Of a DNA stretch of 12,741 nt, positions 3,928-10,563 are shown one piece after another (position 1 is the stretch's first letter; each line of letters opens with the position of its first letter). Below the pieces are notes generated by a model. It saw only the letters and a list, made by a program, of their open reading frames with translations, was not told the DNA's origin and did not search any database. Both the position numbers and the translations under genes were made by a program. The stretch is from a virus. Lineage: Duplodnaviria; Heunggongvirae; Uroviricota; Caudoviricetes. Location of the stretch: IMG/VR virus record IMGVR_UViG_2619619129_000002, one strand, 5' to 3'.

Positions 3928-4082
3928 ACAGCTCCCCGTTTATTATTTATCTCCTCAGCCAGCCGCTGTGCTTTCAGTGGATTTCGGGTAACAGAAAGGC
4001 CGGGAAATACCCAGCCTCGCTTTGTAACGGAGTAGACGAAAGTGATCGCACCTACCCGGATATTATCGTGAGGATGCTTCAT
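3900..4082 (-). CDS. Lambda Orf60a-like small protein (60 aa from MKHPHDN; the track ORF extends 2 codons further to 4088)
   Basis: The 183-nt ORF immediately downstream of exo in the transcript, overlapping the exo stop; length matches lambda orf60a. Confidence 0.65.
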
Positions 4083-4759
4083 CGCCATTGTTCCCCAAAT
4101 ACAAAACCAATTTCAGCCAGTGCCTCGTCCATTTTTTCGATGAACTCCGGCACCATCTCGTCAAAACTCGCCATGTAATTTTCATCCCGCTCAACCACGA
4201 CATAATGCAGGCCTTCACGCTTCATTCGTGGGTCATAGTTGGCAAAGTACCAGGCATCTTTTCGTGTCACCCACATGCTGTACTGCACCTGGGCCATGTA
4301 AGCCGACTTTATGGCCTCGAAACCACCGAGCCGGAACTTCATGAAATCCCGGGAGGTAAACGGGCATTTCAGCTCAAGGCCGTTGCCGTCACTGCATAAA
4401 CCATCGGGAGAGCAGGCGGTGCGCATACTTTCGTCGCGATAGATGATCGGGGATTCAGTAACATTCACGCCGGAAGTAAACTCAAACAGGGCTCTGGCGT
4501 CGTTCTCGTACTGTTTTCCCCAGGCCAGTGCTTTAGCGTTAACTTCCGGAGCCACACCGGTGCAAACCTCGGCAAGCAGGGTGTGGAAGTAGGACATTTT
4601 CATGTCAGGCCACTTCTTTCCTGAGCGGGGCTTTGCTATCACGTTGTGAACTTCTGAAGCGGTGATGACGCCGAGCCGTAATTTGTGCCATGCATCATCC
4701 CCCTGTTCGACAGCTCTCACGTCGATCCCGGTACGCTGCAGGATAATGTCCGGTGTCAT
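4079..4759 (-). CDS. exo: Lambda exonuclease (Red-alpha, 226 aa)
   Basis: Translation [65 protein letters not shown]... recognised as lambda Exo. The start overlaps the bet stop. Confidence 0.97.
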
Positions 4760-5541
4760 GCTGCCACCTTCTGCTCAGTGGCTTTCTGTTTCAGGAATCC
4801 GAGAGCTTTCACTGCTTCGGCCTGTGTCAGTTCTGACGATGCGCGAATGTCGCGGCGAAATATCTGGGAACAGAGCGGCAATAAGTCGTCATCCCATGTT
4901 TTATCCAGGGCAATCAGCAGAGTGTTAATCTCCTGCATGGTTTCATCGTTAACCGGAGTGATGTCGCGTTCCGGCTGACGTTCTGCAGTGTATGCGGTAT
5001 TTTCGACAATGCGCTCGGCTTCATCCTTGTCATAGATACCAGCAAATCCGAAGGCCAGACGGGCACACTGAATCATGGCTTTATGACGTAACATCCGTTT
5101 GGGATGCGACTGCCACGGCCCCGTGATTTCTCTGCCTTCGCGGGTTTTGAATGGTTCGCGGCGGCATTCATCCATCCACTCGGTAACGCAGATCGGATGA
5201 TTGCGGTCCTTGCGGTAAATCCGGCATGTGCAGGATTCATTGTCCTGCTCAAAGTCCATACCATCAAACTGCTGGTTTTCATTGATGATGCGGGACCAGC
5301 CATCAACGCCCACCACCGGAACGATGCCGTTCTGCTTATCAGGGAAGGCGTAAATTTCTTTCGTCCACGGATTAAGGCCGTACTGGTTGGCGACGATCAA
5401 CAATGCGATGAACTGCGCATCGCTGGCATCACCTTTAAATGCCGTCTGGCGAAGAGTGGTGATCAGTTCCTGTGGGTCGACAGAATCCATGCCGACACGT
5501 TCAGCCAGCTTCCCTGCCAGCGTTGCGAGTGCTGTACTCAT
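4756..5541 (-). CDS. bet: Lambda Bet single-strand annealing protein (Red-beta, 261 aa)
   Basis: Translation [74 protein letters not shown]... recognised as lambda Bet. Confidence 0.97.
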
Positions 5542-5546
5542 CCGTT

Positions 5547-5843
5547 TTATACCTCTGAATCAATATCAACCTGGTGGTGAGCAATGGTTTCAACCATGTA
5601 CCGGATGTGTTCTGCCATGCGCTCCTGAAACTCAACATCGTCATCAAACGCACGGGTAATGGCTTTTTTGCTGGCCCCGTGGCGTTGCAAATGATCGATG
5701 CATAGCGATTCAAACAGGTGCTGGGGCAGGCCTTTTTCCATGTCGTCTGCCAGTTCTGCCTCTTTCTCTTCACGGGCGATCTGCTGGTAGTGACGCGCCC
5801 AGCTCTGAGCCTCAAGACGATCCTGAATGTAATAAGCGTTCAT
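5547..5843 (-). CDS. gam: Gam RecBCD inhibitor, short form only (98 aa)
   Basis: Translation [21 protein letters not shown]...VDIDSEV matches lambda GamS. An in-frame TAA lies 17 codons upstream with no ATG/GTG/TTG between, so no N-terminally extended form is encoded here. Confidence 0.93.
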
Positions 5844-5918: not shown

Positions 5919-6329
5919 TTAGTGATTGAGGCCGTTACCGCGTCCGTCGAGAAAAACTTCCACGAGCAAATCACGGGTATAAGTGCGCTCGATGCCGCGA
6001 TGCAGATAAAGCCGTCCGCGTAAATTAGCTGATGCAGTCCAGGTACCATCTTTGTGTTTGACCAGCATTCCTGGCATGACCGCACCGCGATTAACGGTCT
6101 GCGTTCCGTAATGTTGATGAACCATAAAAACTCCTGCCCGTAAGCTGGGCTGCTGAACATTTAGAGACTTCTGCGCGTATTCAGGCGGTGGATGGCCGCC
6201 GGTTGTCATAACTAAGCCGCCTCGTTGAAGCGACTGAGGTATAAAGTGTTGTGTTGATTTCAGCTGGTCACACCGACGTTCACGCGTCCGTTTCACCCCT
6301 CGCACTCCCCGAAGCCTGCTGAAATTCAA
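5919..6329 (-). CDS. Hypothetical early protein at the N position (first ORF on the predicted pL transcript); start ambiguous between TTG 6329 (136 aa), ATG 6209 (96 aa) and ATG 6125 (68 aa, best Shine-Dalgarno)
   Basis: The track ORF begins at a TTG with no Shine-Dalgarno sequence. The long form carries an arginine-rich stretch [15 protein letters not shown]. The ATG at 6125 is preceded by GCAGGAG plus 5 nt. The stop coincides with the point where lambda-like sequence resumes. Confidence 0.35.
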
Positions 6330-6340
6330 ACTGCGGATCT

Positions 6341-6392
6341 AAGCGGTCATCGCAACGGTGAAACAGGTGGTTACCGTATCGTTGTGTCGTTG
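6341..6392 (-). promoter_or_regulatory. 52-nt hairpin in the 5' leader of the predicted pL transcript
   Basis: Perfect 11-bp inverted repeat TCATCGCAACG (6341-6351) / CGTTGCGATGA (6382-6392) around a 30-nt spacer that has a central GGTTACC palindrome. It lies just downstream of the predicted pL start. Confidence 0.4.
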
Positions 6393-6394
6393 CG

Positions 6395-6465
6395 ATGAAT
6401 TTATTTAAAACTATAGTTGTTTTATCGTCAACAACAAAAGTTGTTTTATCGGTTGTTCTAAATAT
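6395..6465 (-). promoter_or_regulatory. Leftward early promoter with operators (pL/OL analogue)
   Basis: Minus strand reads gttgTTGACGataaaacaactatagttTTAAAT, almost a copy of the rightward gttgTTGACTaaaaacaaccatagtttTAATCT at 7940-7975. ACAAC/GTTGT half-sites flank and overlap the -35 (6426-6431). Confidence 0.6.
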
Positions 6466-6567
6466 AACTGGTTGTATTTAGGATGGATTTATTTTGTGAC
6501 TTGCATCGCATAGCGATAACTGAAGTGAGGTGTGGTGGTTTTTTGGACGGTATGAGTTATGAGGGGG

Positions 6568-6598
6568 AGGAAAAGAAAACCCGGCGCGGTTGCCGGGT
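6568..6598 (-). terminator. Rho-independent terminator downstream of the lipoprotein gene
   Basis: Minus-strand hairpin CCCGGC-aaccgc-GCCGGG (plus-strand 6580-6597) followed by a U-run (TTTTCTTTT), right after the lipoprotein stop at 6606. Confidence 0.65.
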
Positions 6599-6605
6599 AT
6601 GATTA

Positions 6606-6986
6606 TCAGTCAGCCCAACCTGATTTCGAGTTTATTTGGGTTTCTGACATTATGTATTTCTTAATCGTGTCATCGTTAAAAAGAATAGTAAGTTCTTTTT
6701 TCGTACCGTTCGTTCCATTATGGAATAATCCATAGAATGGAATAAAAGTGGTGCCATTAACTTTTACTTTTGCAAAGGCGTACTTCCAGATCTCGTTTCC
6801 ACTGTCAGTATATGAAACAGCATCAGGAGAACCAAAGTAAGATTTAACCTCATTCTTGGTTGTTTTACCTTCCTGAAGTTTAGACTGGACACTAATTTCA
6901 GTTTCATTTTTGAGTTGCTGGTTGCCTGAAGAAGCACACCCAGCCAATACAGATGCCATCATGGCAGCGATTAGGATTTTTCTCAT
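6606..6986 (-). CDS. Lipoprotein (126 aa), BamE/OsmE (SmpA/OmlA)-like fold suspected
   Basis: N-terminal signal peptide with lipobox LAGC (Cys17); residue +2 is Ala. Motif GKTTKNEVKSYFGSPDAVSYTDSGNEIWKYAF resembles the BamE/OsmE pattern G-x-T-x-x-[QE]-V-x(3)-[LF]-G-x-P ... W-x-Y-x-F. It sits between the repressor gene and pL, the slot rexAB occupies in lambda. Confidence 0.75.
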   Translation of the reverse strand: MRKILIAAMMASVLAGCASSGNQQLKNETEISVQSKLQEGKTTKNEVKSYFGSPDAVSYTDSGNEIWKYAFAKVKVNGTTFIPFYGLFHNGTNGTKKELTILFNDDTIKKYIMSETQINSKSGWAD

Positions 6987-7215
6987 TTTATGTTTCCATT
7001 CATTATAATCAGAAACATCTTAACATAATGATTCGAAATAAAAACCGCTACGAGATAGGGGGACATTTTGCTGACAGTAGCAACAAATCTCAGCTAACAA
7101 CGAGAATATTTACTGAAATATGCAAACAGATTTGGCGTTCTTATAGAGAATTTAGTGCAATATCTAATCCGAGTGGTATAAACCTTAACCTTCGCTCCCT
7201 TAAGTCGTAGATAAA

Positions 7216-7905
7216 TTAACCATGCTTCCTGTACGTCTGCGGCATGCTTCCAATGACCTTACCGAATATGAACACCCGGTTCATCTCGTCTTTCTCGATC
7301 GGGTCCCACGGCGAGTAGCTCTTGTTATCAGAGATAACCAGCAGCTTATCCTTCATCATTTGAAGACGTTTTACATGGGCAGTGTCGTCGTACAGAAACG
7401 CATAGATGCCATCACCGTCGAAAGATTTAACAGTGATATCAACGAACAGCAGGTCACCTGGTTCGATCGTCCCTGACATGCTGTCACCTCGCACGTTAAT
7501 GATGCGGATATTTTCCGCCTTCCTGCCATCGAACATGTGACGAGCATCGTCAAACGAGTACTCAACCGAGCGTAGAACTTCTACAAACTCACGGTTGATT
7601 ACACCTGGCCCGGCACTGACTTCTATATCAAGAACGTCAATTTTGAAGTATTTGGAATGGCTGACAGTTGATTGTATTGGTTGCACTGTACTGTCTGACA
7701 TATTTCCAACGCCAGAAGATAACCATTCTGCGCGCACACCCAAAGCGTTCGCGATCTCCACGATTTTAGTTGTTTGGTTAGCTTTCCCTGTTTCGATTTT
7801 CTGAATAGCAGCCTGGCTAACCCCGACCAAATCCCCAAGCGCCTTTTGTGTAAGGCCTCGCGCTAATCTGGCTTCTTTAAGTCTTTCTGAGAGTGTTGTT
7901 TTCAT
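7216..7905 (-). CDS. CI-like phage repressor (229 aa): N-terminal XRE-type HTH, C-terminal S24 LexA-like autopeptidase
   Basis: HTH segment LTQKALGDLVGVSQAAIQKIETGK; candidate Ala-Gly cleavage site in VSAGPG; S24 catalytic motifs GDSM (Ser) and HVKRL (Lys). Divergently transcribed from the cro-like gene. Not lambda cI by sequence. Confidence 0.9.
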   Translation of the reverse strand: MKTTLSERLKEARLARGLTQKALGDLVGVSQAAIQKIETGKANQTTKIVEIANALGVRAEWLSSGVGNMSDSTVQPIQSTVSHSKYFKIDVLDIEVSAGPGVINREFVEVLRSVEYSFDDARHMFDGRKAENIRIINVRGDSMSGTIEPGDLLFVDITVKSFDGDGIYAFLYDDTAHVKRLQMMKDKLLVISDNKSYSPWDPIEKDEMNRVFIFGKVIGSMPQTYRKHG

Positions 7906-8009
7906 AGATCAAATGTACAACCAAGGTTTTATTTCATCAAACGAAAATGGTTGTTGACTAAAAACAACCATAGTTTTAATCTTGATTCGGATTAACCACG
8001 GAGGTTGTT
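7906..8009. promoter_or_regulatory. Divergent promoter/operator region (OR, pR, and presumably pRM) between the repressor and cro-like genes
   Basis: pR: -35 TTGACT (7946-7951), 17-bp spacer, -10 TAATCT. Operator inverted repeat ATGGTTGT-N9-ACAACCAT overlaps the -35; a further ACAACC-aa-GGTT element lies at about 7918-7931. The repressor ATG follows with no Shine-Dalgarno sequence, which suggests a leaderless mRNA as for lambda cI from pRM. Confidence 0.7.
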
Positions 8010-8240
8010 ATGAACCCAGCAATCAAAACAGCGATCAATATCGTTGGTTCACAAAAGAAACTAGGCGATGCCTGCGAAGTTTCACAGCAGGCCGTCTATA
8101 AGTGGCTTCACAACAAAGCAAAGGTATCCCCTGAACATGTCGGCAGCATTGTTACGGCTACTGGTGGAGTTGTGAAGGCATACCAGATTCGCCCGGATCT
8201 TCCGAAGTTGTTTCCACACACCGAAAAGAACGCAGCTTAA
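8010..8240 (+). CDS. Cro-like small HTH regulator (76 aa), YdaS-type
   Basis: GGAGG Shine-Dalgarno 6 nt upstream of the ATG. First gene rightward from pR. Small protein with an HTH-like segment QKKLGDACEVSQQAVYKWL. Confidence 0.85.
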   Translation: MNPAIKTAINIVGSQKKLGDACEVSQQAVYKWLHNKAKVSPEHVGSIVTATGGVVKAYQIRPDLPKLFPHTEKNAA

Positions 8241-8252
8241 ATTTCCATTTCA

Positions 8253-8265
8253 CGCTCTTTAACAA
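8253..8265 (+). promoter_or_regulatory. boxA-like element (CGCTCTTTAACAA), candidate nutR component
   Basis: Exact match to the GCTCTTTAACAA boxA type (rrn / phage 21 / P22) as I recall it. It lies in the cro-to-next-gene spacer where lambdoid nutR sites sit. No convincing boxB hairpin found next to it. Confidence 0.5.
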
Positions 8266-8309: not shown

Positions 8310-8849
8310 ATGCAACCACTTACATACCAACAGACTAGCGGATTTATTCCGACTGCGGTGATAAATCGTTCTCAAACAAAACAAGCTCCAGGCCACGAAA
8401 AAATCCGTGATGCCGTCCGCGCCTGGTCGGCTGTAGATAATCAGGATGTCGTTGCCGCACTCATTGTGAATGAGTATCGGGAGCAGGGCGACGGCACCAT
8501 CGATTTCCCTGATGATGTCAGCCGTGCACGCCAGAAGCTGTTCCGCTTCCTCGATAACAAATTCGATTCTGAAAAATACCGAAATAACGTGCGTGAACTG
8601 ACCCCGGCAATTCTGGCGGTACTACCGCTGGAATATCGCGGTTACCTGGTTGAGCAGGATAGCTTCATGACTCGGTTGGCTGAAATGGAAAAGGAACTCA
8701 GTGAGGCAAAACAGGCTGTCATTCTCAACGCACCACGCCACCAGAAACTGAAGGAAATGAGTGAAGGTATTGTGTCGATGTTTCGTGTGGACCCGGATCT
8801 GGCTGGTCCATTAATGGCGATGGTGACCACCATGCTGGGGGCAATATGA
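8310..8849 (+). CDS. YdaT-like protein (179 aa) in the cII position
   Basis: AAGGAG Shine-Dalgarno upstream. Occupies the slot between cro and O. Resemblance to the Rac YdaT family is from recall of domain character, not verified. Confidence 0.7.
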   Translation: MQPLTYQQTSGFIPTAVINRSQTKQAPGHEKIRDAVRAWSAVDNQDVVAALIVNEYREQGDGTIDFPDDVSRARQKLFRFLDNKFDSEKYRNNVRELTPAILAVLPLEYRGYLVEQDSFMTRLAEMEKELSEAKQAVILNAPRHQKLKEMSEGIVSMFRVDPDLAGPLMAMVTTMLGAI

Positions 8850-8935
8850 CAGGTTCAGAAATGGCGAAAGTCGGTCTGCGGGAACAGAACCGACTTTCAG
8901 GTGCAAATCGTAACACACTCATTGCGGGAGGAATT

Positions 8936-9865
8936 ATGGCAAACACTGCTGAGATATTCAATTTTCCAGTGCCGGATGCGGCACAAAAGGAGCCGCGCGT
9001 GGCAGATCTCGATGATGGTTATACGCGCATTGCAAATGAGTTGCTGGAAGCTGTGATGCTGGCCGGATTAACACAGCACCAGCTTCTGGTCTTCCTGGCT
9101 GTCATGCGCAAAACATATGGCTTTAATAAAAAACTGGATTGGGTGAGCAACGAGCAACTTTCCGAGTTGACCGGGATATTGCCGCACAAGTGTTCTGCTG
9201 CAAAAAGTGTTCTGGTAAAGCGTGGGATTTTTATTCAGAGCGGGCGGAATATCGGCATTAATAATGTGGTCAGTGAATGGTCAACATTACCCGAATCAGG
9301 TAAGAAAAATAAAGTTTACCTGAAAGAGGTAAATTTACCTGAATCAGGTAAGAAAAGTTTACCCAAATCAGGTAAAGGCACTTACCCGAATCAGGTAAAC
9401 ACAAAAGACAAACTAACAAAAGACAATATAAAACCTTATTCGTCCGAGAATTCTGGCGAATACTCTGACCAGCCAGAAAACGACCTTCCTGTGGTGAAAC
9501 CGGATGCTGCGATTCAGAGCGGCAGCAAGTGGGGGACAGCAGAAGACCTGACCGCCGCAGAGTGGATGTTTGACATGGTGAAGACCATCGCGCCATCAGC
9601 CAGAAAACCGAATTTTGCAGGGTGGGCCAACGACATCCGCCTGATGCGTGAGCGTGACGGGCGTAACCATCGCGACATGTGCGTTCTGTTCCGCTGGGCC
9701 TGCCAGGACAACTTTTGGTCTGGTAACGTGCTGAGCCCGGCCAAACTTCGCGACAAATGGACCCAACTCGAAATCAACCGTAACAAACAACAGGCTGGCG
9801 TGACAGCCGGAAAACCAAAACTCGACCTGACAAACACAGACTGGATTTACGGGGTGGATCTATGA
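8936..9865 (+). CDS. O: Replication initiator O (309 aa), chimeric: non-lambda N-terminal domain, lambda-identical C-terminal domain
   Basis: Start placed at ATG 8936 (GGGAGG Shine-Dalgarno 6 nt upstream; MANTAEIFNF aligns with lambda O MTNTAKILNF). The C-terminal roughly 120 aa (ENDLPVVKPDAAIQSGSKWGTAEDLTAAEWMFDMVKTIAPSARKPNFAGWANDIR...) match lambda O from memory. The track ORF extends upstream to 8846. Confidence 0.9.
   Translation: MANTAEIFNFPVPDAAQKEPRVADLDDGYTRIANELLEAVMLAGLTQHQLLVFLAVMRKTYGFNKKLDWVSNEQLSELTGILPHKCSAAKSVLVKRGIFIQSGRNIGINNVVSEWSTLPESGKKNKVYLKEVNLPESGKKSLPKSGKGTYPNQVNTKDKLTKDNIKPYSSENSGEYSDQPENDLPVVKPDAAIQSGSKWGTAEDLTAAEWMFDMVKTIAPSARKPNFAGWANDIRLMRERDGRNHRDMCVLFRWACQDNFWSGNVLSPAKLRDKWTQLEINRNKQQAGVTAGKPKLDLTNTDWIYGVDL
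9287..9435. repeat. ori: Replication origin inside O: five 18-bp iterons (starts 9287, 9316, 9335, 9359, 9382) plus an AT-rich tract (9400-9435)
   Basis: Iteron consensus TTACC(C/T)GAA(T/A)(C/G)AGGTAA(G/A), each an inverted repeat (for example TACCTGA-A-TCAGGTA), followed by cacaaaagacaaactaacaaaagacaatataaaacc. Same architecture as lambda ori but a different iteron sequence. Confidence 0.8.
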
Positions 9866-10563
9866 AAAACATCGCCGCACAGATGATTAACTTTGACCGT
9901 GAGCAGATGCGTCGGATCGCCAACAATATGCCGGAACAGTACGACGAAAAGCCGCAGGTACAGCAGGTAGCGCAGATCATCAACGGTGTGTTCAGCCAGT
10001 TACTGGCAACTTTCCCGGCGAGCCTGGCTAACCGTGACCAGAACGAACTGAACGAAATCCGCCGCCAGTGGGTTCTGGCTTTCCGGGAAAACGGGATCAC
10101 CACAATGGAACAGGTTAACGCAGGAATGCGCGTAGCCCGTCGGCAGAATCGACCATTTCTGCCATCACCCGGGCAGTTTGTTGCATGGTGCCGGGAAGAA
10201 GCATCCGTTATCGCCGGACTGCCAAACGTCAGCGAGCTGGTTGATATGGTTTACGAGTATTGCCGGAAGCGAGGCCTGTATCCGGATGCGGAGTCTTATC
10301 CGTGGAAATCAAACGCGCACTACTGGCTGGTTACCAACCTGTATCAGAACATGCGGGCCAATGCGCTTACTGATGCGGAATTACGGCGTAAAGCTGCCGA
10401 TGAGCTGACCTGTATGACCGCGCGAATTAACCGTGGTGAGGCGATACCTGAACCAGTAAAACAACTTCCTGTCATGGGCGGTAGGCCTCTAAATCGTGCA
10501 CAGGCTCTGGCGAAGATCGCAGAAATCAAAGCGAAGTTCGGACTGAAAGGAGCAACTATATGA
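9862..10563 (+). CDS. P: Replication protein P (helicase loader, 233 aa), lambda-like
   Basis: Translation MKNIAAQMINFDREQMRRIANNMPEQYDEKPQVQQVAQIINGVFSQLLATFPASLANRDQNELNEIRRQW... recognised as lambda P. ATGA start/stop overlap with O. Confidence 0.95.
   Translation: MKNIAAQMINFDREQMRRIANNMPEQYDEKPQVQQVAQIINGVFSQLLATFPASLANRDQNELNEIRRQWVLAFRENGITTMEQVNAGMRVARRQNRPFLPSPGQFVAWCREEASVIAGLPNVSELVDMVYEYCRKRGLYPDAESYPWKSNAHYWLVTNLYQNMRANALTDAELRRKAADELTCMTARINRGEAIPEPVKQLPVMGGRPLNRAQALAKIAEIKAKFGLKGATI

Follow-up and report, generated by a model that had tools for sequence, protein, structure and literature searches.

The operators of phage 434 are 14 bp long, with five contacted bases at each end and four uncontacted bases in the centre (PMC1636474); in the annotated 434 genome they read ACAAGAAAGTTTGT and others like it. 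A second relevant system is the PaaR2/YdaS/YdaT switch of CP-933P (Sp12), in which the repressor, PaaR2, lacks an S24 domain and is made from a leaderless mRNA, and is accompanied by a YdaS-type Cro and a YdaT-type CII analogue. Four repeats, 18-bp palindromes with the consensus GTTTAGTAA, lie in its ~100 bp intergenic region and overlap PR and PRM, and the YdaS-type Cro footprints over them (PMC8630535).

The stretch of DNA analysed here (the window, 12,741 nucleotides of IMG/VR virus record IMGVR_UViG_2619619129_000002) contains the ordinary lysis-lysogeny control (immunity) region of a lambdoid E. coli phage that is almost identical to Escherichia phage PhiR26_1, and no new kind of mechanism is revealed. 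The immunity type is very common in E. coli prophages, the segment being present in 1524 of 5426 complete E. coli genomes (~28%), for example in DLP12-like prophages at argU. Operators of this type, whose repressor has the recognition helix SQAAIQK, are annotated in none of the records examined, and a literature search by phage name (PhiR26_1, IdasGreatGrand and others) and for experimental descriptions of the immunity type found nothing relevant. The original prediction of divergent early promoter-operator regions, of lambdoid type, is supported; the sites that the repressor appears to recognise are 14 bp long (ACAAC-N4-GTTGT) and share their plan with those of 434.

Lambda recombination and replication genes had also been proposed. 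The flanking exo-bet-gam genes are 97.7% identical to lambda's, and the replication genes are lambda-like in part (~95%), in P and in the C-terminal third of O but not in the N-terminal part of O. Unlike in lambda, the cII position holds a YdaT-type gene (Pfam YdaT_toxin, 4.3e-30; phrog_163, CII-like activator), and no N gene is recognised in the window.

The cI gene (7216 to 7905, minus strand) encodes a repressor of 229 residues with an HTH_3 domain (Pfam 5.4e-13, residues 9–62), in which the recognition helix SQAAIQK occupies residues 30–36, and a Peptidase_S24 domain (1.2e-18, residues 95–218). The S24 motifs (Ala98-Gly99, Ser142 in GDSM, and Lys179 in HVKRL) align to those of 434 cI and UmuD, and we predict a lambdoid/LexA-like HTH and S24 repressor that is SOS-cleavable. 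An S24-peptidase CI unlike that of lambda had been proposed correctly, and its close likeness to the 434 repressor and operators was overlooked: the best PDB match of the N-terminal domain is the 434 repressor N-terminal domain rather than that of lambda (1per; E 4.5e-9), with query residues 5–68 aligned to chain residues 2–65 at ~38% identity over 64 ungapped residues, although overall identity to 434 cI is 29%. A single-sequence AlphaFold model of cI is unusable (pLDDT 37.6), so the 434-like fold is assigned by sequence homology. The first recognition-helix position is Gln, as in 434 (Gln28), whereas the helix as a whole (TQQSIEQ in 434) is identical at two of seven positions.

The recurring unit in the control regions is a 14-bp palindrome, A[C/A]AAC-N4-GTT[G/T]T. 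ACAAC/GTTGT pentamers number 39 in 12.7 kb (0.31 per 100 bp), with six in 6381–6475 and five in 7895–8008, a clustering far above chance. The 14-mer ACAACNNNNGTTGT has five matches in the window at one mismatch or fewer, where 0.42 are expected (none of 200 shuffles gives as many), all of them inside the OL and OR control regions. Its significance holds for this one-mismatch set only, as the 11 matches at two mismatches or fewer across the whole window, against 6.5 expected, are not significant. The motif search across the window supports ACAAC/GTTGT as the operator half-site. Sites of the 17-bp lambda type (TATCACCG) have no match at three mismatches or fewer, in agreement with the earlier claim that these operators differ from those of lambda.

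There are two convincing sites at OL. OL1 (AAAACTATAGTTGT, 6407 to 6420) has one mismatch, lies in the PL spacer and overlaps the -10, and OL2 (ACAACAAAAGTTGT, 6431 to 6444) is a perfect palindrome whose first base is the last base of the PL -35. A weak OL3 candidate (ATATAACTGGTTGT, 6462 to 6475) is uncertain, with three mismatches and only its GGTTGT half good; many related loci have a half-site at this position, 31–32 bp from OL2, without a conserved partner half. At OR there are three sites and a candidate fourth. OR3 (ACAACCAAGGTTTT, 7917 to 7930; one mismatch) lies in the PRM spacer; OR2 (ACGAAAATGGTTGT, 7941 to 7954; two mismatches) is a weak site between the PR and PRM -35 hexamers; and OR1 (ACAACCATAGTTTT, 7964 to 7977; one mismatch) is in the PR spacer, its last T being the first base of the -10. 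The candidate, S0 (ACCACGGAGGTTGT, 7995 to 8008; one mismatch), lies over the cro Shine-Dalgarno sequence at about +6 to +20 of PR. Because OR2 fills the gap, the OR3, OR2 and OR1 starts are 24 and 23 bp apart, and OL1 and OL2 are likewise separated by 24 bp. OR2 or S0 could be non-functional, the former being a poor match and the latter overlapping the Shine-Dalgarno sequence.

Three promoters can be read from these regions, assigned by eye (hexamers and starts) from where they lie, their strong -35 hexamers and their conservation among relatives. PL (6403 to 6431, minus strand) has the -35 TTGACG (6426–6431), a 17-bp spacer containing ACAACTATAGTT, and the -10 TTAAAT (6403–6408). Its predicted start at ~6396 (cATCG; lambda and 434 have cATCAG) gives a leader start resembling that of 434 PL. 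The PL leader folds no better than shuffles (z = -1.2), so we claim no put-like antiterminator RNA, and Rfam gives nothing relevant at gathering thresholds or at E <= 1. PR (7954 to 7982, plus strand) has the -35 TTGACT (7954–7959), a 17-bp spacer containing ACAACCATAGTT, the -10 TAATCT (7977–7982), and a predicted start at ~7989. The near-copy early promoters of the original prediction (TTGAC[G/T], a 17-bp spacer and an A/T-rich -10) are both present, with 19-nt cores (6405–6423 and 7961–7979) that are 95% complementary. The modules number three rather than the two proposed, however, as PRM with OR3 and a leaderless cI had been overlooked. PRM (7912 to 7940, minus strand) consists of the -35 TTGATG (7935–7940), a 17-bp spacer and the -10 TACATT (7912–7917), and its predicted start is the A of the cI ATG (7905), so that the cI mRNA would be leaderless. 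None of PR, PL and PRM is called by a consensus promoter scanner, whose threshold their -10 hexamers do not reach.

Very probably, then, CI, with its 434-like HTH and S24 domains, binds 14-bp A[C/A]AAC-N4-GTT[G/T]T operators, and one module, [14-mer]-[-35]-[4–5 nt]-[14-mer]-[-10], is used three times: OL2, TTGACG, OL1 and TTAAAT at PL; OR2, TTGACT, OR1 and TAATCT at PR; and OR2, TTGATG, OR3 and TACATT at PRM. A CI dimer would occupy each two-fold-symmetric site, reading the outer 5+5 bases directly and the central four not. By analogy with the 434 co-crystal structures, Gln31 may contact A1 and Lys36 may contact G5'. Repressor on OL1 and OR1, inside the promoter spacers, would block RNA polymerase, and neighbouring sites 23–24 bp apart would be bound as cooperative pairs, helping the weak OR2. 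OR2 adjoins the PRM -35, the place from which the lambda and 434 repressors activate PRM, and OR3 in the PRM spacer may serve negative autoregulation and is likely the first target of Cro. Site strength is predicted to be highest at OR3 and OL2, not at OR1 and OL1, so a lambda-like order of occupancy may not be followed.

This arrangement shares with 434 the 5+4+5 plan of 14-bp operators beginning A.AA and ending TT.T, the 22–24 bp between sites, and a site adjoining the PRM -35. It departs from 434 at base 5, a C in all good half-sites here but in none of the twelve 434 halves, and at base 2, which is C or A rather than always C. The strict ACAA-N6-TTGT rule holds for OL2 only; OR1, OR3 and OL1 each have one AAAA/TTTT half. 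The PR and PRM -35 hexamers overlap in 434 and are separated here by a 14-mer, and there are four sites at OR (counting the S0 candidate) and two strong ones at OL, where 434 and lambda have three. Lambda likewise has divergent PR and PRM promoters, a tripartite operator at 23–24 bp spacing with a weak middle site, an S24 autocleavage domain, accessory genes between cI and PL, and a leaderless cI mRNA as predicted here. Its operators are 17 bp rather than 14 bp, however, and the repressor and Cro described here are unrelated in sequence to its specificity determinants.

A species-wide scan gave 44 loci, and the 27 canonical ones, from about 20 genera of Enterobacterales, have S0, OR1, OR2 and OR3 at about -103, -72, -49 and -25 from the cI ATG. 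OR1 (at -72/-73) has at most one mismatch in 24 of the 27 and S0 in 22, with both outer halves of S0 conserved; the centre of S0 is the Shine-Dalgarno sequence, so part of its conservation has another cause. OR3 (-25/-26) has perfect half-sites in most relatives. Most related loci also retain OR2, at -49/-50; one of its halves is good and the other poor, and in Pantoea and Erwinia (AACAC-TTTA-GTTGT) the two sides are reversed. Of 28 related loci searched for an OL2/OL1 pair, 22 have one, with a separation of 24 bp in all but a single locus (23 bp), and OL2 has perfect half-sites in 20 of 21 distinct copies. Logos of OR1, OR3, OL1 and OL2, built on 20–24 distinct copies per site, show ~2 bits at positions 1, 3, 4, 5, 10, 11, 12 and 14 and 0.2–1.7 bits, mostly ~1 or less, at the central four. 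Next to the 14-mers, TTGAC and TAnnnT hexamers are conserved at the spacing of a promoter; the TTGAC and AAAT flanks of PL are conserved, the PR -10 equivalent is TAT[T/A]nT with T1, A2 and T6 nearly invariant, and PRM has TAnnTT directly after OR3 with T1, A2 and T6 invariant in 24 distinct relatives.

The inverted repeats named in the original prediction are all present, namely ATGGTTGT-N9-ACAACCAT at 7947–7971, GTTGT (6416–6420)-N10-ACAAC (6431–6435), and ACAAC (6431–6435)-N4-GTTGT (6440–6444), but only the last, which is OL2, is a true operator unit. The other two are the facing halves of adjacent 14-mers, and their spacers follow from the 23 and 24 bp site spacings (23-14=9 and 24-14=10). 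We consider it very unlikely that a repressor dimer binds each of these long outward-facing repeats, over the PR and PL -35 hexamers respectively, as a single unit. The OR repeat does extend to a perfect 9-N7-9 palindrome of 25 bp (ATGGTTGTT-N7-AACAACCAT), the longest inverted repeat in OR, and both repeats cover -35 hexamers; this palindrome is nonetheless the right half of OR2 and the left half of OR1, and the spacing differs (N9 or N10) within one phage, as expected from the arithmetic of adjacent 14-mers. OR3 and S0 have no long-repeat partner, the exact GTTGT-N9/10-ACAAC arrangement is kept in 17 of the 27 loci and lost in ten where the N4 14-mer positions persist, and the site of a 434-type HTH dimer is 14 bp long, its halves facing inward. 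The GGTTGT-N9-ACAACC pattern has a single good match and forms no family.

The repeats are conserved together with the repressor, SQAAIQK repressors in ~20 Enterobacterales genera keeping the sites in the same layout. Among E. coli, Klebsiella and Providencia phages with the helix GVSQAAIQKIETG and cI identities down to 50%, the half-sites are invariant and the centres and flanks vary. Relatives with the same C-terminal domain and the helix AQPTIWR (BTP1, 4A7, PhiR30_1 and others) have no ACAAC-type sites in their control regions, and nor do those with AQPSIFK, SQPSIWK or SQPTVNR. This points to the SQAAIQK helix and ACAAC sites constituting a distinct immunity specificity, because repressors with this helix keep the sites and relatives with other helices have none, and the phage can soundly be expected to be heteroimmune to lambda and 434. 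The sister type of BTP1, ST104 and 4A7 is 75–82% identical in cI overall and shares its C-terminal domain, helices 4–5, the Cro family and the frame of the control region, in which a 14-mer is closely followed by a TAAATT -10 and the cI ATG. It differs in its recognition helices (AQPTIWR in cI, [AS]QPTVWRW in Cro) and in its half-sites, which are of the ATACG/ATAGC type rather than ACAAC; ATACGCAAGCGTAT is present at the OR3-equivalent position in PhiR30_1, 4A7 and Klebsiella ST11-VIM1phi8.2, and BTP1 has a one-mismatch copy.

The cro gene (8010 to 8240, plus strand) encodes a 76-residue HTH protein of the YdaS/Cro superfamily (Pfam YdaS_toxin, 6.6e-17) with the recognition helix SQQAVYK; the protein also matches Pfam P22_Cro below that profile's cut-off. 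Its best PDB match is the Xylella Xfaso1 Cro (3bd1; E 0.0055), and 434 Cro is absent among its PDB matches at E <= 1; unlike in 434, Cro is not a paralogue of the repressor's DNA-binding domain. YdaS at the cro position and YdaT at the cII position correspond to the YdaS/YdaT-type switch of Rac and CP-933P, but the repressor, having an S24 peptidase domain, is not of the PaaR2/RacR kind, and the CP-933P palindromes are unrelated to the sites here.

The Cro helix also varies with immunity type (SQQAVYKW or SQAAVQKW as opposed to [AS]QPTVWRW) and covaries with the 14-mers as tightly as does the CI helix. The covariation is unable to separate CI binding from Cro binding. The possibility that the 14-mers are sites for the YdaS-type Cro only, or for another factor, with CI binding elsewhere, gains from this and from the CP-933P footprints noted above, but is just as improbable as binding to the long repeats. 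The CI helix covaries too, the CI N-terminal domain is homologous to a repressor (434) that reads nearly this 14-mer, OR and OL contain no alternative repeat family, and in Pectobacterium the OR3 and OL1 sites persist alongside a CI homolog though no divergent cro is nearby. Least credible is that the repeats act through nucleic-acid structure, as a hairpin terminator or attenuator at 7947–7971, flagged as terminator-like on both strands by a scanner (a by-product of adjacent half-sites), or as iteron-like 19-nt direct repeats (6409–6427 and 6433–6451; 89% identical, 24 bp apart), since the hairpin is upstream of both predicted PR and PRM starts, has only three GC pairs in nine and is not conserved as a hairpin, and conservation beyond the E. 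coli phages takes in the palindromic cores but not the TTTATCG extension of the direct repeats.

Returning to CI binding at the 14-mers, Cro, although of a different fold family, would read the same half-sites through its near-identical recognition-helix motif: CI (434-type HTH) and Cro (lambda/P22-Cro-type fold) have almost the same helix sequence, SQAA[I/V]QK. A bolder reading, to which we give somewhat less than an even chance, is that the right operator has four sites, with S0 in the transcribed cro leader, and that the CI and Cro helices and the half-site are exchanged together between immunity types. S0 is 31 bp, or three helical turns, from OR1, an arrangement mirrored at OL by the half-site 31 bp from OL2. 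Helix and 5-bp half-site would be swapped jointly on conserved protein and promoter scaffolds, ACAAC accompanying QAAIQK and ATACG accompanying QPTIWR. If so, this family would represent a natural, genus-spanning modular re-specification of a bistable switch, suited to testing how repressor, Cro and operators shift specificity in step.

The sites provide a testable operator map for an immunity type in ~28% of complete E. coli genomes and ~20 Enterobacterales genera, and superinfection-immunity groups may be predictable from sequence through the correspondence of SQAAIQK with ACAAC-N4-GTTGT. With the BTP1/4A7 sister type they make a matched pair differing only in the CI and Cro recognition helices and the 5-bp half-sites, useful for studies of specificity co-evolution and for building orthogonal switches.

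Between cI and PL there is a lipoprotein-like accessory gene, or moron (6606 to 6986, minus strand; phrog_3135, with a weak BamE match), and sister phages carry other cargo genes in this slot. An intrinsic-terminator-like hairpin (6579 to 6598, minus strand), with a 7-bp stem containing six GC pairs and followed by a T run, presumably marks the end of the cI-lipoprotein transcription unit, upstream of PL.

One geometry, ACAAC-N4-GTTGT (14 bp), fits every good half-site around the predicted promoters. ACAAC/GTTGT pentamers, present at 0.31 per 100 bp across the window, number six in 6381–6475 and five in 7895–8008. At no more than one mismatch the 14-mer occurs five times in 12.7 kb, at the predicted operators OL1 (6407–6420), OL2 (6431–6444), OR3 (7917–7930) and OR1 (7964–7977) and at a further predicted site, S0 (7995–8008); 0.42 matches are expected and none of 200 shuffles reaches five. 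A 14-mer with two mismatches at 7941–7954 (OR2) fills the gap in OR, such that sites start 24 bp apart at OL and 24, 23 and 31 bp apart at OR (OR3, OR2, OR1, S0). The original observation is real, and all of the sequence elements it named are found where it placed them. The inverted repeats then proposed as operators (GGTTGT-N9-ACAACC at OR and GTTGT-N10-ACAAC at OL) were rejected as units, as they wrongly pair the right half of one operator with the left half of the next, and they arise because the 14-mers are spaced 23 and 24 bp apart (23−14 = 9; 24−14 = 10). The original prediction is thus right in outline, but its half-site pairing is wrong, its treatment of PRM and OR3 is incomplete, and it missed a likeness to phage 434.

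The promoters PR (7954–7982, + strand), PL (6403–6431, − strand) and PRM (7912–7940, − strand) are predicted from position and conservation, and none of the three is called by a simple promoter scanner. Read in the direction of transcription they align as one module: ACGAAAATGGTTGT-TGACT-AAAA-ACAACCATAGTTTT-AATCT for PR, ACAACTTTTGTTGT-TGACG-ATAAA-ACAACTATAGTTTT-AAAT for PL, and ACAACCATTTTCGT-TTGATG-AAAT-AAAACCTTGGTTGT-ACATT for PRM. In each, the −35 starts at or adjoining the last base of the upstream 14-mer, and the −10 shares its first base or two with the end of the downstream one. PL and PR nearly repeat each other in their cores, at 95% over 19 nt. With 6 nt between the PRM −10 (TACATT) and the cI ATG, the cI mRNA is predicted to be leaderless, like that of lambda. 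Around the PL start the sequence is tcATCG, in agreement with the cATCAG found there in 434 and in lambda.

The 14-mers are conserved with the repressor. Six isolated E. coli phages, with cI at least 99.6% identical, have the same sites despite differing cargo genes between cI and PL. The helix GVSQAAIQKIETG is retained in Klebsiella phage ST101-KPC2phi6.1 (cI 77%) and Providencia phage PSTCR7lys (50%), together with all sites in unchanged order and spacing, while the central bases and flanks vary. A species-wide scan (one genome per species, with an alignment of the N-terminal DNA-binding domain, NTD, as query) returned 44 loci. The 27 canonical loci, from ~20 genera, have 14-mers at approximately −103 (S0), −72/−73 (OR1), −49/−50 (OR2) and −25/−26 (OR3) from the cI ATG, and of 28 loci searched 22 have an OL2/OL1 pair, spaced by 24 bp (23 in a single locus), at 0.8–3.3 kb downstream of where cI starts. 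Logos of OR1, OR3, OL1 and OL2 have ~2 bits at positions 1, 3, 4, 5, 10, 11, 12 and 14, and 0.2–1.7 bits, mostly ~1 or less, at the central four bases; at the expected promoter distances the flanks conserve TTGAC, and TAT[T/A]nT (PR), TAnnTT (PRM) or AAAT (PL). OR2 usually has 2–3 mismatches. The E. coli group combines a perfect half towards cro with a poor half towards cI (ACAAC....TTCGT, read along the cI strand), and in the Pantoea/Erwinia group the halves are reversed in quality (AACAC-TTTA-GTTGT). The latter form keeps the 14-mer frame but destroys the N9 palindrome, which is exact in only 17 of the 27 loci. The conservation with the repressor that the original prediction called for is seen in the 14-mers and not in the long palindromes. 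The best-matching sites in most relatives are OR3 and OL2 rather than OR1 and OL1, and the order of occupancy may therefore differ from lambda's.

The S0 14-mer (ACCACGGAGGTTGT), 31 bp from OR1, overlaps the cro Shine-Dalgarno sequence. In 22 of 27 related loci its two outer halves are kept, with substitutions limited to allowed half-site variants, and S0 is likely an extra site at ~+6 to +20 of PR. Upstream of OL2 the window has GGTTGT at 6451–6456 and 6470–6475, and most relatives have two or three extra direct-orientation ACAACC/AAAACC half-sites following a conserved AAAAATAAAT stretch; these may represent a degenerate OL3. In twelve Pectobacterium species and Samsonia (loci L019–L030), a cI homolog that shares the recognition helix is accompanied by a perfect 14-mer at −25 and, ~1.1 kb downstream, by an OL1-like site, with no divergent cro within 140 bp, and this homolog may be either a domesticated repressor or part of a different switch layout. 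One locus, in a record titled Chryseobacterium sp. 18061, is Pantoea-like sequence with this enterobacterial immunity region, likely reflecting mislabelling or contamination.

ACAAC-N4-GTTGT sites are absent from the OR and OL regions of relatives that have the helix AQPTIWR, AQPSIFK, SQPSIWK or SQPTVNR but share the C-terminal domain and helices 4–5 with the window cI. The AQPTIWR set comprises PhiR30_1, 4A7, BTP1, Klebsiella ST11-VIM1phi8.2, SaltyDalty and two Providencia loci. At the position corresponding to OR3, immediately ahead of TAAATT and the cI ATG, PhiR30_1, 4A7 and ST11-VIM1phi8.2 have ATACGCAAGCGTAT (BTP1 has a one-mismatch copy); at the position corresponding to OR1 these three have ATAGCAAT[G/T]CGTAT. 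The recognition helices of CI and Cro, proteins of different HTH families, are nevertheless nearly identical within each immunity type: in the window and loci L008, L013 and L017–L059, CI SQAAIQK accompanies Cro SQQAVYK/SQAAVQK, and AQPTIWR accompanies [AS]QPTVWR. Cro helices SQQAVYKW or SQAAVQKW occur with ACAAC operators and [AS]QPTVWRW with ATACG, such that CI helix, Cro helix and half-site covary on an otherwise conserved scaffold. The window Cro does not resemble that of 434: its Pfam matches are YdaS_toxin and, below that family's cut-off, P22_Cro, and its best solved relative is Xylella Xfaso1 Cro.

The repressor is an S24 CI unlike lambda cI, as predicted, with HTH_3 and Peptidase_S24 domains, autocleavage motifs at Ala98-Gly99, Ser142 (GDSM) and Lys179, and no lambda cI among its structure matches. 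The best solved relative of its NTD is that of 434 repressor (1per, E 4.5e-9, 64 residues, ungapped), the two cI proteins being 29% identical overall. Phage 434 has three 14-bp sites in OR and three in OL, in which the repressor contacts the outer 5+5 bases but not the central four, and the outer 4+4 are conserved (PMC1636474). Its six operators, from the annotated genome (ACAAGAAAGTTTGT, ACAAGATACATTGT, ACAAGAAAAACTGT, ACAAGGAAGATTGT, ACAATAAATATTGT and ACAATGGAGTTTGT), share the 14-bp plan, but base 5 is C in every good window half-site and never C in 434, and base 2 is C or A in the window and always C in 434. The recognition helices differ in sequence (SQAAIQK in the window, TQQSIEQ in 434). 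By the contacts in 434 co-crystal structures, the Gln kept in the window helix (434 Gln28) would read A1; Ala in place of Gln29 would fit the relaxed base 2, and Lys in place of Gln33 could read the G opposite C5. OR2 lies between the −35 hexamers of PR and PRM in the window, whereas these overlap in 434; the window also differs in the likely extra site S0, and in an OL with two strong sites and only a conserved half-site 31–32 bp beyond OL2.

From this organization we infer a lambda/434-style switch. CI dimers at OL1 and OR1 (in the spacers) and at OL2 and OR2 (at the −35 hexamers) would repress PL and PR, and the 23–24 bp spacing would let neighbouring dimers bind cooperatively and so fill the weak OR2. 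Because OR2 adjoins the PRM −35, as in 434, its position would suit activation of PRM; OR3, within the PRM spacer, would mediate autorepression and be a first target for Cro. S24 autocleavage would provide SOS induction.

Segment 7650–8240 is present in 1524 of 5426 complete E. coli genomes at 95–100% identity, one example being a DLP12-like prophage adjoining tRNA-Arg with intD, emrE, ybcK-ybcO, rusA and quuD. In the phage collection searched, this cI is confined to the six carrier phages and is shared by no classical lambdoid phage; the next-best matches are 82% identical, those tested having another helix. Literature searches found no published description of these operators, and as far as they show this widespread specificity is experimentally uncharacterised. 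CP-933P has a related YdaS/YdaT switch with four footprinted intergenic repeats (PMC8630535), but its repressor and repeat consensus differ (PMC8630535).

The region is an ordinary lambdoid immunity region. Escherichia phage PhiR26_1 (PV340555.1), 99.8% identical over the surrounding 2 kb, is annotated with integrase, exo, bet, gam, 'Kil', lipoprotein, cI, Cro, 'cII', O, P and Ren in lambda order. The window has exo-bet-gam (4079–5843, −), a Kil-containing ORF (5919–6296, −), a lipoprotein-like accessory gene (6606–6986, −), cI (7216–7905, −), cro (8010–8240, +), a YdaT-type gene in the cII position (8310–8849, +) and O and P (8846–10563, +). The predicted lambda recombination and replication genes are present as exo-bet-gam (97.7% identity to lambda), P and the C-terminal third of O (~95%), but the N-terminal two-thirds of O (8846–9400) is non-lambda, implying a different origin/iteron specificity; this segment is only 97.1% identical to PhiR26_1, compared with 99.8% for the immunity region. 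The 125-aa 'Kil' ORF matches Kil over residues 50–125 only, and its N-terminus, which begins at a GTG preceded by GGGGAG, is Arg-rich and reminiscent of an N arginine-rich motif. No N gene was recognised in the PL–kil interval (5919–6396, −), and the PL leader RNA has no significant fold or Rfam match. An exact rrn-type boxA (CGCTCTTTAACAA) at 8253–8265, directly downstream of cro, is kept in five sister E. coli phage loci and an E. coli prophage; several other genera have an identical boxA on the cI strand downstream of cI, where the E. coli phages lack it. The cI–PL gap (6559–7215) is a cargo hotspot, occupied by the lipoprotein gene in the window and by HipA-like genes, GevT/GevA toxin-antitoxin genes, RexAB or ST313-td in relatives (L003, L004, L008 and L009), and a strong terminator-like hairpin (6579–6598, −) ends the cargo unit.
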